Below, piece by piece: positions 26,158 to 29,170 of a stretch of 64,000 nt of DNA. Source of the DNA: Escherichia coli (GTDB taxonomy: Bacteria; Pseudomonadota; Gammaproteobacteria; Enterobacterales; Enterobacteriaceae); NCBI RefSeq assembly GCF_029227855.1, contig NZ_CP074356.1; one strand, 5' to 3'. Each line of letters begins with the position of its first letter. Position 1 is the stretch's first letter. Below the pieces are notes generated by a model, which searched no databases, was not told where the DNA came from, and saw only the letters and a program-made list of their open reading frames with translations. The translations under genes were made by a program, and so were the position numbers.

Positions 26158-27105
26158 ATGCGTGTGTTACTGGCACCGATGGAGGGTGTACTCGACTCTC
26201 TGGTGCGTGAATTGCTGACCGAAGTTAACGACTACGATCTGTGCATCACCGAGTTTGTCCGCGTGGTGGATCAACTGCTGCCGGTAAAAGTCTTTCATCG
26301 CATTTGCCCTGAGCTACAAAACGCCAGCCGGACACCATCCGGTACGCTGGTGCGCGTGCAGTTGTTAGGTCAGTTCCCACAATGGCTGGCAGAGAATGCC
26401 GCCCGTGCGGTCGAGTTAGGTTCCTGGGGCGTGGATCTCAATTGCGGCTGCCCGTCGAAAACGGTTAACGGTAGCGGCGGTGGGGCGACGTTACTCAAAG
26501 ATCCTGAACTCATCTATCAGGGTGCAAAAGCGATGCGTGAAGCTGTACCGGCGCATTTGCCCGTCAGCGTGAAAGTGCGTCTGGGCTGGGACAGCGGTGA
26601 GAAGAAATTTGAAATCGCCGATGCGGTGCAACAGGCTGGCGCTACGGAGCTGGTAGTACATGGGCGGACAAAAGAGCAGGGTTACCGCGCGGAGCATATT
26701 GACTGGCAGGCGATTGGCGAGATTCGCCAGCGGCTGAATATTCCGGTGATTGCCAACGGTGAAATTTGGGACTGGCAGAGCGCGCAACAATGCATGGCGA
26801 TCAGCGGCTGTGACGCAGTGATGATTGGTCGCGGGGCGCTCAATATTCCCAACCTGAGCCGGGTGGTAAAATATAACGAACCGCGAATGCCGTGGCCGGA
26901 GGTGGTTGCTTTGCTGCAAAAATATACCCGTCTGGAAAAGCAGGGCGATACCGGGTTATATCACGTAGCGCGGATTAAACAGTGGTTGAGTTATTTGCGT
27001 AAAGAATACGATGAAGCAACGGAATTATTTCAGCATGTTCGGGTGTTGAATAATTCCCATGATATTGCAAGGGCTATTCAGGCAATTGATATCGAGAAAC
27101 TCTAA
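26158..27105 (+). CDS. dusC: tRNA-dihydrouridine synthase C
   Basis: ORF 26092..27105 trimmed to [11 protein letters not shown].. (Dus family TIM barrel). Confidence 0.9.
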
Positions 27106-27257
27106 GAAACCATAGTGATGTTTTTTGACAATGTGTTAGCTCTTTATCAATAGGCCGCACGGTTGTTTGGTGGCGTCAAAATCGCCGAGGCGTTCCCTGA
27201 AGGCCGGGGCAGCCCACATGGATGTGGGCTGAGGGCGCGTTTTACAGGGATAATGAG

Positions 27258-27268
27258 ATGGACGCTCC
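27258..27268. repeat. Left subterminal inverted repeat of IS element
   Basis: atggacgctcc; reverse complement recurs at 28623..28633 and, imperfectly, over the transposase RBS at 27326..27335. Confidence 0.5.
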
Positions 27269-27336
27269 AGATTTTACGGTATCAAAGTACCAGACTGGAT
27301 CGTTGCAATACGTCCTGAAAAATTAGGAGCGTCCAC

Positions 27337-28362
27337 ATGAAAGTATCAACTCTTGGTATCGACTTGGCAAAGAACGTTTTTCAGCTTCATGGTGTCGATC
27401 ATGAAGGCCATACTATTTTGCGTAAAAAGCTCACCCGGGCTAAGTTTGTTCAGTTTGTGATTCAACTGGAACCTTGTCTGATTGGCATGGAAGCCTGCTC
27501 ATCCAGTCATTATTTTGCGCGATTATTCACCCGCTATGGTCATGAGGTAAAACTCATACCTCCGCAGTATGTGAAGCCTTATGTGAAAACGAACAAGACG
27601 GATGCAGCAGATGCTGAAGCAATCTGCGAAGCGGTAACCCGTCCGAATATGCGTTTTGTTCAGATAAAAACCGAAGAGCAGCAGGCCGTTTTAGCGTTAC
27701 ACACTGAACGGGGAATACTTATCCGTGAGCGGATTGCCTGTGCCAATAGTTTAAGAGCCACACTTGCTGAGTTTGGTATTACGATTGCGGCCGGACAAAA
27801 CCATTTAACCCGTGAGCTGCCAGCCATTCTGGAGGATGGCGAAAATGGTTTATCTCCCTTTGTCAGAACCAGCATCTACAGACAGTCTAAACATATCCGG
27901 GAACTTGAAGAACAAGTTAAACAGGTAGAAGAAGCTCTGGCCTCCTGGTATAGAACGCAGGAAGCCTGCCAGAGAATGGCCAAGATCCCGGGGGTTGGCA
28001 TGCTAACGGCCACTTATGTGGTAGCAGCAGTGGGTAATGCCCGACAATTCAGTACCGCAAAGCAGTTCGCTTCATGGCTGGGGCTGACACCAAAGGAACA
28101 TTCCAGCGGCGGGAAACAGCAACTGGGAGGGATCAGCAAACGTGGAGATGGATATTTCCGATACCTGCTGGTTCACGGCGCACGCGCACTTACCGCCTGG
28201 GTCAACCGAAACGGCGCGGTTGAGGAGAATTCCTGGCTTCAGGGACTCCTTGAGCGGAAGCACTACAATGTAGCTGTTGTCGCCATGGCGGCAAAAACAG
28301 CGAGGATCATGTGGTCAATATTGTCACACAATACTGAATATCAACCTCGGCAGCTCGCCTGA
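27337..28362 (+). CDS. IS110-family transposase/recombinase (DEDD RuvC-like N-domain plus C-terminal Ser domain)
   Basis: 341 aa; N-terminal GIDLAK, GMEACSS, DAADAEAI and C-terminal SSGG...GGISKRGD motifs typical of IS110/IS1111 transposases; resembles IS4321/IS5075 more than IS621. Confidence 0.9.
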   Translation: MKVSTLGIDLAKNVFQLHGVDHEGHTILRKKLTRAKFVQFVIQLEPCLIGMEACSSSHYFARLFTRYGHEVKLIPPQYVKPYVKTNKTDAADAEAICEAVTRPNMRFVQIKTEEQQAVLALHTERGILIRERIACANSLRATLAEFGITIAAGQNHLTRELPAILEDGENGLSPFVRTSIYRQSKHIRELEEQVKQVEEALASWYRTQEACQRMAKIPGVGMLTATYVVAAVGNARQFSTAKQFASWLGLTPKEHSSGGKQQLGGISKRGDGYFRYLLVHGARALTAWVNRNGAVEENSWLQGLLERKHYNVAVVAMAAKTARIMWSILSHNTEYQPRQLA

Positions 28363-28640
28363 CACAAGGTCAGTCAATCTGACGAGGTGCTGAAAAAAAG
28401 TTAACGTCCTGGTAGGTGCAAGTGACTTCAGAAGATGGCAAAACAGGTAAGACCGCAGGCAGGATACACCGAGAGGTAACAAGGGCAAGTTAGCCCGTAG
28501 AGGATGATTGGTACCTGCCTGGCGGATTTCATCATGGTTCGGGATAAAAATCCCATCAGAAACCGGATATATGGCTGCACCTACCCGTTTTATTACATAA
28601 CTGAAGAAAGCATTGCATTCCGGGAGCGTCCATATATGTT
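28363..28640 (+). ncRNA. Candidate IS-encoded guide (bridge/seek) RNA in right-end non-coding region
   Basis: IS1111-group elements encode their guide RNA downstream of the transposase; region has no ORF and several short stems (gtcagtcaatctgac); extent is guessed. Confidence 0.3.
28623..28633. repeat. Right subterminal inverted repeat of IS element
   Basis: ggagcgtccat, reverse complement of 27258..27268. Confidence 0.5.
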
Positions 28641-28863
28641 ACCTCGCGCCCGACCCGGTAGCCGTAAGGGATAAGCCGAGGGCACCGCGCAGCGGCGATT
28701 TTGTTCGCCAGAGCCCGGGGGGGCAGGGGGCGGCGGCGATTGGTCGCCCCCTGCGCGCTCCCTGCGCCAGTGATTATATGAAGCAATGCACATGACAGGA
28801 GCGCAACAGGATGAGAGACTGAAATATTCTCGTTATTTTCGGATCTGATGACATTAATTAATT

Positions 28864-28947
28864 TTAAAATATCATCTTAAATACGCCAGTCACCACCAGT
28901 AGCCCAATCAGGAAAATAATCAATACAGCCCAGAGTATAATTTTCAT
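28864..28947 (-). CDS. yohP: Small membrane protein YohP (27 aa)
   Basis: Minus-strand ORF MKIILWAVLIIFLIGLLVVTGVFKMIF, below the 60-aa cut-off of the ORF track. Confidence 0.7.
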   Translation of the reverse strand: MKIILWAVLIIFLIGLLVVTGVFKMIF

Positions 28948-29170
28948 TGGCGTTCCTTTATTTGTGAGTGCTGAATAAGTATAGGAAAAAACGAAGCCCT
29001 TTGCCGCTATCCATAAACGATTAAGATAAATCGGAAGATATCATTCACTTAGTGTATATTTTTCTGGATATGTCGTTTTATTGCCACTGATGTATTGCCA
29101 CGCGAAACTAAAAAATATATCGCAACACACGGTAATCTCCGCGCACCTTTTCTTACCTGATTATTCCCCC

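Follow-up and report, generated by a model that had tools for sequence, protein, structure and literature searches.

In Escherichia coli contig NZ_CP074356.1 (assembly GCF_029227855.1), the inverted repeat near the left end of an insertion sequence, ISEc81, is nearly complementary to the sequence just before the start codon of its transposase gene. Does this complementarity limit how much transposase is made, and if so, from which transcripts? We analyzed the 64,000 nucleotides of DNA that contain the element (the window; positions are numbered from its first letter) along with related elements from other bacteria. To our knowledge, almost nothing is known about the control of transposase synthesis in IS1111-type elements. 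The IS110/IS1111 recombinases are under development as programmable genome-editing tools.

ISEc81 and its insertion site

ISEc81 (27251-28636, + strand, 1386 bp) lies between dusC and yohP and belongs to the IS1111 group of the IS110 family. We set its boundaries by comparing the locus to the empty site in E. coli K-12 and by the IS1111 convention of a 7-nt terminal extension at the left end and a 3-nt extension at the right end (PMC11187229). The empty site reads ACAGGGA/TGTTACC (the slash marks the insertion point), and beyond a shared AT there is no target duplication. The shared AT leaves the ends uncertain by ±1, and extensions of 7 and 3 nt are compatible with the comparison. The left end consists of the extension TAATGAG (27251-27257, + strand), which is kept in relatives as TAATG(G/A)N, followed by the left subterminal inverted repeat (IRL), ATGGACGCTCC (27258-27268, + strand). 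At the right end are the right subterminal repeat (IRR), GGAGCGTCCAT (28623-28633, + strand), and the extension ATA (28634-28636, + strand). A repeat search shows that the two repeats (27258-27268 and 28623-28633) are complementary at 11 of 11 positions.

The window is chromosomal and matches strain JNEC-KY178 at 100% identity. The order of the locus is yohK and yohJ (- strand), dusC (+ strand, with its stop at 27105), ISEc81, yohP, and mdtQ. The transposase gene (27337-28362, + strand, with its ATG at 27337-27339) is the sole open reading frame of ISEc81 and encodes a DEDD/RuvC-like protein of 341 amino acids, which matches the Pfam families PF01548 (E = 3.8e-15) and PF02371 (E = 1.1e-24) and which RefSeq labels as "IS110 family RNA-guided transposase." It is identical at 337 of 341 amino acids to the ISfinder protein for ISEc81 (supplement file 6 of Siddiquee et al., PMC11187229). 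The gene is preceded by an 86-nt leader and followed by a 274-nt non-coding region. As far as the sequence can tell, this arrangement matches that of the IS1111 group.

We found full-length copies of ISEc81 in 175 E. coli genomes. The element was seen at three sites in E. coli (dusC-yohP, yegH-asmA, and lysO-aqpZ), and the flanks of these sites are near-identical. Judging from these comparisons, the insertion of ISEc81 is site-specific and does not duplicate the target. The element is centred in an imperfect palindromic intergenic repeat (27177-27250 and 28637-28703), with the arms CAAAATCGCCGAGGCG and CGCAGCGGCGATTTTG. The three occupied sites are all copies of this one repeat, which is not annotated in K-12. 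The flank sequences have matches in 5,418 of 5,426 complete E. coli genomes, at a median of 2 places each. In strain 2016C-3878 (NZ_CP029747), a copy of ISEc81 has the dusC flank on its left and the aqpZ flank on its right, which points to a chromosomal rearrangement in which two copies of ISEc81 recombined.

The 3' non-coding region (28363-28622, + strand) is expected to encode the seekRNA or bridge RNA, given the layout of related elements (PMC11187229, PMC11208160). Within it, 11 of the 12 positions of CGAGAGGTAACA (28470-28481) are complementary to TGTTACCTCGCG, the right target flank (28637-28648), and CGTTTTA (28586-28592) is identical over its 7 nt to part of the left flank (27238-27244). 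These two segments look like the target guides of a seekRNA or bridge RNA. A long-range stem (28411-28420 with 28576-28585) encloses both putative guides. Also, CCGGATATATGGCTGCACC (28563-28581) resembles a motif that ISKpn4, ISPst6, and ISPa11 have in common in their non-coding regions (supplement of PMC11187229). Since it is complementary to the right-end tip, CCATATAT, it may be a donor-binding segment.

A predicted three-way junction in the leader

The sequence before the transposase gene, GGAGCGTCCAC (27326-27336), is a third copy of the subterminal repeat, and it is complementary to IRL at 10 of 11 positions. The Shine-Dalgarno sequence AGGAG lies at 27325-27329, 7 nt upstream of the ATG. 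The sequence-only reading of this DNA had proposed just such a match between IRL and an AGGAG-containing copy before the ATG at 27337, and this can be read directly from the letters; it placed the copy at 27326-27335, which has the right start and ends one base short, as the 11-mer runs to 27336. It also described the motif as a direct repeat at the right end, and there we find the copy with a short extension, GGAGCGTCCATAT (28623-28635), so that IRR is part of a 13-nt direct repeat (27326-27338 and 28623-28635) that is identical at 12 of 13 positions. The inverted repeat between IRL and the RBS-proximal copy is longer than either: it reaches 17 nt (27259-27275 with 27319-27335) at 88% complementarity, and its perfect 10-bp core is TGGACGCTCC with GGAGCGTCCA (27326-27335). 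The 10-mer GGAGCGTCCA or its complement occurs exactly three times in the window, all within ISEc81. We would expect 0.10 occurrences, and none of 100 dinucleotide shuffles reached 3.

If transcribed, the region 27250-27345, whose folding had been suggested as a check, is predicted to form a stable structure with the RBS region paired. Its minimum free energy is -30.2 kcal/mol (z = -4.6), and none of 200 shuffled sequences folds as well. In the minimum-energy structure, 27259-27268 pair with 27326-27335 and 27270-27275 pair with 27319-27324. The mean pairing probability is 0.87 for the ten bases from -14 to -5 relative to the ATG, which include the AGGAG, and 0.80 for the AGGAG alone.

This predicted structure is a three-way junction of the stems P1, P2, and P3, in which the hairpin makes up the outer stem, P1. 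The 5' arm of P1 (27259-27275, + strand), which includes most of IRL, contributes the 10-bp core, a 1-nt bulge, and a 6-bp inner extension, GATTTT. The 3' arm (27319-27336, + strand) is AAAATTA followed by the third repeat copy, with its Shine-Dalgarno sequence. Between the arms, the minimum-energy fold has two hairpins: P2 (27278-27291, + strand), GGTAT-CAAA-GTACC, for which the family consensus is GGCAUC-N3-4-GUGCC, and P3 (27297-27315, + strand), GGATCGT-TGCAAT-ACGTCC, whose sequence varies in the family while the pairing is kept. The sequence-only reading was right that a stem hides the RBS, and overlooked that the stem belongs to a three-way junction. A search of 27000-29000 against Rfam 15 (E ≤ 1) gave no match in the leader. 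The same search gave two sub-threshold matches outside the leader, to AgvB and mir-611. The AgvB match (28781-28841, - strand, near yohP) scores 22.9 bits, compared to a gathering score of 56, with E = 0.18, and is probably due to chance.

To see how widely the fold occurs, we collected relatives of ISEc81 in three ways. A protein search identified ISYen1 and ISEch3, along with elements from Serratia and Pectobacterium. Scanning species-representative genomes gave at least 80 loci from α-, β-, and γ-proteobacteria, with 45-54% identity among the matches listed, and closer relatives were added by separate look-ups. In 51 loci, we identified the subterminal repeats independently of the leader, solely by the match between left and right. 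We then analyzed 36-37 distinct elements further, and the large majority of them have a third copy that abuts the ATG and varies along with the repeats. For example, the left repeat and the RBS-proximal copy are ATGGACGCTCC and GGAGCGTCCA in ISEc81, and elsewhere ATGGTCGCCCCT and GAGGCGACCG, GTGGATGGCTCC and GGAGCCACCCC, or ATGGACTCCTCCC and GAGGAGT. Among the relatives analyzed, the distance from IRL to the ATG is always 73-87 nt.

When we folded the 36 distinct leaders singly, nearly all of the minimum-energy structures contained the same three-way junction. In these leaders, the mean probability of pairing between the Shine-Dalgarno region and the first 22 nt is 0.78, versus 0.33 if the arm is shuffled and 0.56 if it is replaced by a foreign arm from a different class of repeat. 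Similarly, cognate arms pair at 11.69 of 16 positions, versus 10.39 of 16 if the arms are permuted (p ≤ 1e-4). The pairing of IRL with the RBS is also kept in IS4321 and IS5075 (40% identity), but only weakly in the IS5708 group.

A covariance model of P1, P2, and P3 has 77 matches in 73 related loci, at 45-88% protein identity. All 77 matches are on the + strand, and nearly all of them end at the transposase ATG. In the alignment of these 77 places, which is fitted to the model, 82.9% of the cells form standard pairs, versus 72.7% after shuffling and 30-43% in controls with slid positions. In that fitted alignment, 17 of the 22 pairs show changes on both sides (165 cells). None of 500 shuffles reached the observed covariation score, to which all three helices contribute. 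For P2, 94.9% of cells are paired, 3 of its 5 pairs have changed on both sides, and the closing U.G pair is kept in 61 of 74 rows. For P3, all 5 of the pairs in the model have changed on both sides. RNAalifold with its default scoring recovered P2 alone, both from a MAFFT alignment of the 36 leaders and from the 77-row model alignment. We attribute this miss to one-base shifts in register, to gappy weak rows, and to C.A mismatches in P1. With RIBOSUM scoring and the best 44 of the 77 rows, P1, P2, and P3 were all predicted. (An apparent tandem leader in a Rhizobacter contig, at 1014-1206, is bounded by Ns, and we rejected it as an assembly artefact.) Overall, the comparisons indicate that a large clade of IS1111-type elements shares the leader fold, with compensatory changes in its pairs.

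What the fold may do

Which transcripts would carry this fold? The dusC gene is on the same strand as the transposase gene, and we found no terminator-like site between the dusC stop (27105) and ISEc81, so read-through RNA would carry both arms. The sequence-only reading had predicted that a read-through transcript from dusC could form a stem of roughly 10 bp that hides the RBS; such a transcript includes both arms, and the predicted 10-bp core bears the idea out. The element's own mRNA is the other candidate. If the ends are abutted, as in a circular intermediate, then TTGCAT (28613-28618, + strand) would serve as the -35 hexamer and, 16 nt downstream, the last two bases of the right extension (28635-28636) and the first four bases of the left extension (27251-27254) would form the -10 hexamer TATAAT. 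In about 35 relatives, the -10 is likewise built from the last two right-end bases and the first four left-end bases and reads TATAAT, the -35 (TTGGCA or TTGCAA) lies just inside the right repeat, and the spacer of 16-17 nt holds the repeat. So a promoter is predicted to arise in ISEc81 once the ends abut, and its elements are conserved in relatives. The sequence-only reading had the anatomy of a circle junction right, with two copies of the motif brought together; it missed that the joined copies are the right and left repeats, which make a palindrome inside the promoter. With IRR in the spacer and IRL at the expected start, any protein that binds the repeats would also occupy this promoter.

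Transcription from the junction is predicted to start about 7 nt past the -10, at 27260-27262, which is in the first bases of the 5' arm of P1. The mRNA of ISEc81 itself would therefore carry the inhibitory arm too: a start at 27260-27262 leaves 7-9 of the 10 core pairs as well as the inner extension. To open 27322-27342, the predicted cost is 16.1 kcal/mol when transcription starts at 27258, 11.9 kcal/mol for 27261, and 9.6 kcal/mol for 27263, while a read-through transcript from 27200 gives 10.0 kcal/mol. We found no promoter-like site on the + strand between the arms (27269-27318). With the start site that we infer for the junction promoter, the stem is better read as a general brake on translation than as a filter against outside transcription.

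Our preferred explanation, to which we give a probability of roughly 60%, is that the three-way junction is a built-in brake on transposase translation that acts on any transcript containing the left repeat. The 86-nt leader would fold so that P1 joins the left repeat (27259-27275) to the sequence before the start codon (27319-27335) and buries the AGGAG, and the inner hairpins P2 and P3 would lock the fold. Little transposase would then be translated from any of these transcripts, which means dusC read-through and most likely also junction-promoter mRNA from circles, as such mRNA should begin within the first few bases of the left repeat. We infer the folding of the sense RNA in vivo, the lowered translation, and the position of the transcription start from these models.

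A variant that we consider unlikely is that the leader junction is a switch rather than a fixed brake, and represents an undescribed family of cis-regulatory RNAs in IS1111-type transposons, with P1 as an RNA copy of the duplex between the subterminal repeats. Several things might open it. In a full-length transcript, the right repeat lies at the 3' end and might draw the left repeat away from the RBS; IRL binds IRR more stably than it binds the RBS, by 7.4 kcal/mol on average, and the IRL:IRR duplex is the stronger of the two in 31 of 36 elements. Alternatively, the transposase or a seekRNA complex might bind the stem, or an antisense RNA similar to RNA-OUT might be made from a conserved promoter-like site on the minus strand. 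Each of these routes would couple the production of transposase to whether the guide RNA, or the circular form, is present.

Rather unlikely, in our view, is that the RBS-proximal copy is a third recognition site in the DNA for the transposase or its guide RNA, acting as an autoregulatory operator or an accessory end, and that the RNA pairing is a by-product. P1 is nearly co-extensive with the inverted repeat, and the copy tracks the subterminal repeats across the family, so covariation in P1 does not by itself tell an RNA stem apart from a third site in the DNA. Family-wide, pairing in P1 past the repeat is barely above chance (2.72 of 6 positions, versus about 2.25 expected); it is clear in the ISEc81 clade alone (4-5 of 6). 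The direct repeat that links this copy to the right end of ISEc81 runs 2 nt past the inverted repeat (12 of 13 identical), which fits a DNA site. Also, where the copy departs from the repeat, the departures are G-to-A changes that break the RNA pairing. In about half of the family, these appear as C.A mismatches at the As of the Shine-Dalgarno sequence (94 C.A cells versus 54 G.U cells), because the As of GGAG or GAGG in the RBS-proximal copy face the CCCC of the repeat. A DNA site does not account for the position of the copy, as the spacing between the 3' arm of P1 and the start codon is fixed at 0-4 nt across the family, or for the copy being embedded in a fold whose P2 and P3 covary. And in the integrated state, there is no nearby promoter for an operator to control.

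ISEc11, a relative that has been studied by experiment and whose sequence we retrieved with tblastn using the ISEc11 protein, also speaks against a third DNA site. Its real left repeat, ATGAACGCATCCC, is 143 nt before the ATG. Yet the 97 nt before the ATG are predicted to form the same three-way junction (-32.6 kcal/mol, z = -3.15), with a 5' arm of P1 that has a different sequence, GUGGAGCCUC, and is not the true inverted repeat. In other words, the stem persists with a 5' arm that is unrelated to the real repeats, and the fold seems to be kept for its own sake. It looks as though ISEc11 kept an older leader while the ends on either side were exchanged. In the leader of ISEc11 (516-612 of its locus), the Shine-Dalgarno sequence is buried and the 5' arm is the internal sequence GTGGAGCCTC; the true left repeat is closer to the end of the element by about 60 nt, and GGGATGC in P3 is an alternative partner for it. 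A mini-ISEc11 with 50 bp of the left end transposes at 15-42% (PMC11187229), so 50 bp suffice and the leader region is dispensable in cis for recombination. Taken together, the covariation of P2 and P3, the lock to the start codon, and ISEc11 favour a role in the RNA over a third DNA site.

It is quite unlikely that the stem protects specifically against read-through, as in IS10 and IS50, with transcripts from dusC silenced and the element's own mRNA starting past the 5' arm. Both arms are indeed on transcripts that enter from dusC, with no terminator-like site found in between. Also, in 9 of 36 relatives, the minimum-energy fold has additional pairs between the ATGG of the 7-nt extension and the CCAU of the start region, and these pairs can form solely if transcription starts outside the element. 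But there is no promoter-like site between the arms: the sole conserved promoter is the one at the junction, whose -10 ends at 27254. Its start is predicted at 27260-27262, and for starts at 27261 and 27258 the RBS costs 11.9-16.1 kcal/mol to open, which is no lower than the 10.0 kcal/mol for a transcript from 27200. In ISEc11, moreover, any start from a junction would be upstream of the 5' arm, which is 85 nt in from the end of the element. The earlier suggestion that the stem sets read-through apart from the element's own transcripts is thus not supported, as we found no promoter-like site between the arms and the predicted junction start keeps most of the 5' arm.

We think it very unlikely that the molecule that folds is an antisense RNA, similar to RNA-OUT of IS10 or Asr9 of ISPpu9, that has its promoter on the minus strand within the first 35 nt of the gene, forms a mirror-image three-way junction, and pairs with the leader. 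In ISEc81, the hypothetical promoter is TTGCCA-17 nt-GATACT (27342-27370, - strand), which points outward through the leader. It matches at just 9 of 12 positions, and promoter-like sites are no commoner in this region than in shuffled sequences (3 versus 2.2). Most relatives have a site in the same position, within the first 35 nt of the gene (TTGCCA, 17 or 18 nt, and TAATCT or GATACT), and the codons that build it show a synonymous bias (GCA at 40 of 63 versus 12.5 expected, and ATT at 24 of 30 versus 9.8 expected). Selection for coding starts that are A/U-rich and unstructured would give the same codon bias. So the minus-strand site and its codons could reflect an antisense promoter or, equally, A/U-rich starts of genes. 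The signals for which strand is used conflict, both in counts of G.U versus A.C and in folding energies. The antisense strand folds better by 3.8 kcal/mol on average (p = 1e-5), and the C.A mismatches in P1 and P3 become U.G pairs on that strand. However, the 3' arm of P1 has to include a Shine-Dalgarno sequence, which accounts for its As, and the U.G pair of P2 that is conserved in 61 of 74 rows would turn into C.A on the antisense strand, which argues for the sense strand. Also, no terminator follows on the minus strand.

That the complementarity is a coincidence without function, for which nothing speaks except the short length of the repeat, is contradicted by the comparative data, with three exact 10-mers where 0.10 are expected, a z of -4.6 for the fold, and the recurrence of the arrangement at 77 places, down to 45% protein identity.

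Significance and comparison with known systems

If the leader junction is a translational brake, it would explain why integrated IS1111 elements are quiet, and it would matter for expressing native IS1111 cassettes. The fold spans elements from E. coli to α- and β-proteobacteria, and in them the left repeat appears to be reused to hide the RBS. It may tie the sequence of the element's ends to the expression of the enzyme that recognises those ends. The covariance model can also be used to annotate the 5' boundary and the orientation of IS1111 elements.

How does this compare with other insertion sequences? The closest in arrangement are other IS1111 elements. ISEc11, IS4321/IS5075, ISYen1, and ISEch3 resemble ISEc81 in having a DEDD transposase, subterminal repeats of 11-13 bp, extensions of 7 and 3 nt, a 3' seekRNA region, a junction promoter, and site-specific insertion without duplication (PMC11187229), and the predicted leader fold is present in them too. 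ISEc11 differs in that its fold is uncoupled from the real left repeat.

ISPpu9, of the IS110 group, is the nearest case in which the leader is known to limit translation. Its 5'-UTR buries the RBS, mutations that weaken the fold raise translation 26-fold, and an antisense small RNA, Asr9, opens the leader (PMC8450116). Like ISPpu9, ISEc81 has a transposase of the same superfamily and a structure in the leader that involves the RBS and is predicted to limit translation. An antisense transcript of the leader was demonstrated in ISPpu9 and is possible in ISEc81, where it would come from the hypothetical minus-strand site. Unlike ISEc81, ISPpu9 has a leader of about 245 nt with its own promoter, on the bridge-RNA side, and no subterminal repeats. 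We found no sequence relation between the two.

In IS200, a stem that sequesters the RBS of tnpA and the antisense RNA art200 suppress translation independently (PMC4513863). The transposase family is unrelated to that of ISEc81, and the stem does not involve a terminal repeat.

The classical parallel is IS10 and IS50. In their 1998 review, Mahillon and Chandler reportedly describe fold-back inhibition in these elements, in which inverted repeats near the end sequester the RBS on read-through transcripts. IS10 and IS50 have their own promoter between the arms, and transcripts from outside alone are silenced. As in IS10 and IS50, the left end of ISEc81 has a sequence that is complementary to the translation start of the transposase, and ribosome binding is predicted to be blocked. 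Unlike them, ISEc81 has no detectable promoter between the arms, according to our predictions, and its junction promoter should give transcripts that include the 5' arm. ISEc81 also differs in that its stem closes a three-way junction and the 5' arm is the subterminal repeat itself.

Neither the leader fold nor the third copy of the repeat is described in the 2024 papers on seekRNA and bridge RNA or in the papers on ISPpu9. Overall, a leader structure that buries the RBS was already known from ISPpu9, and occlusion by a terminal repeat was already known from IS10 and IS50, while the leader fold of IS1111 elements, as predicted from these alignments, appears to be new.
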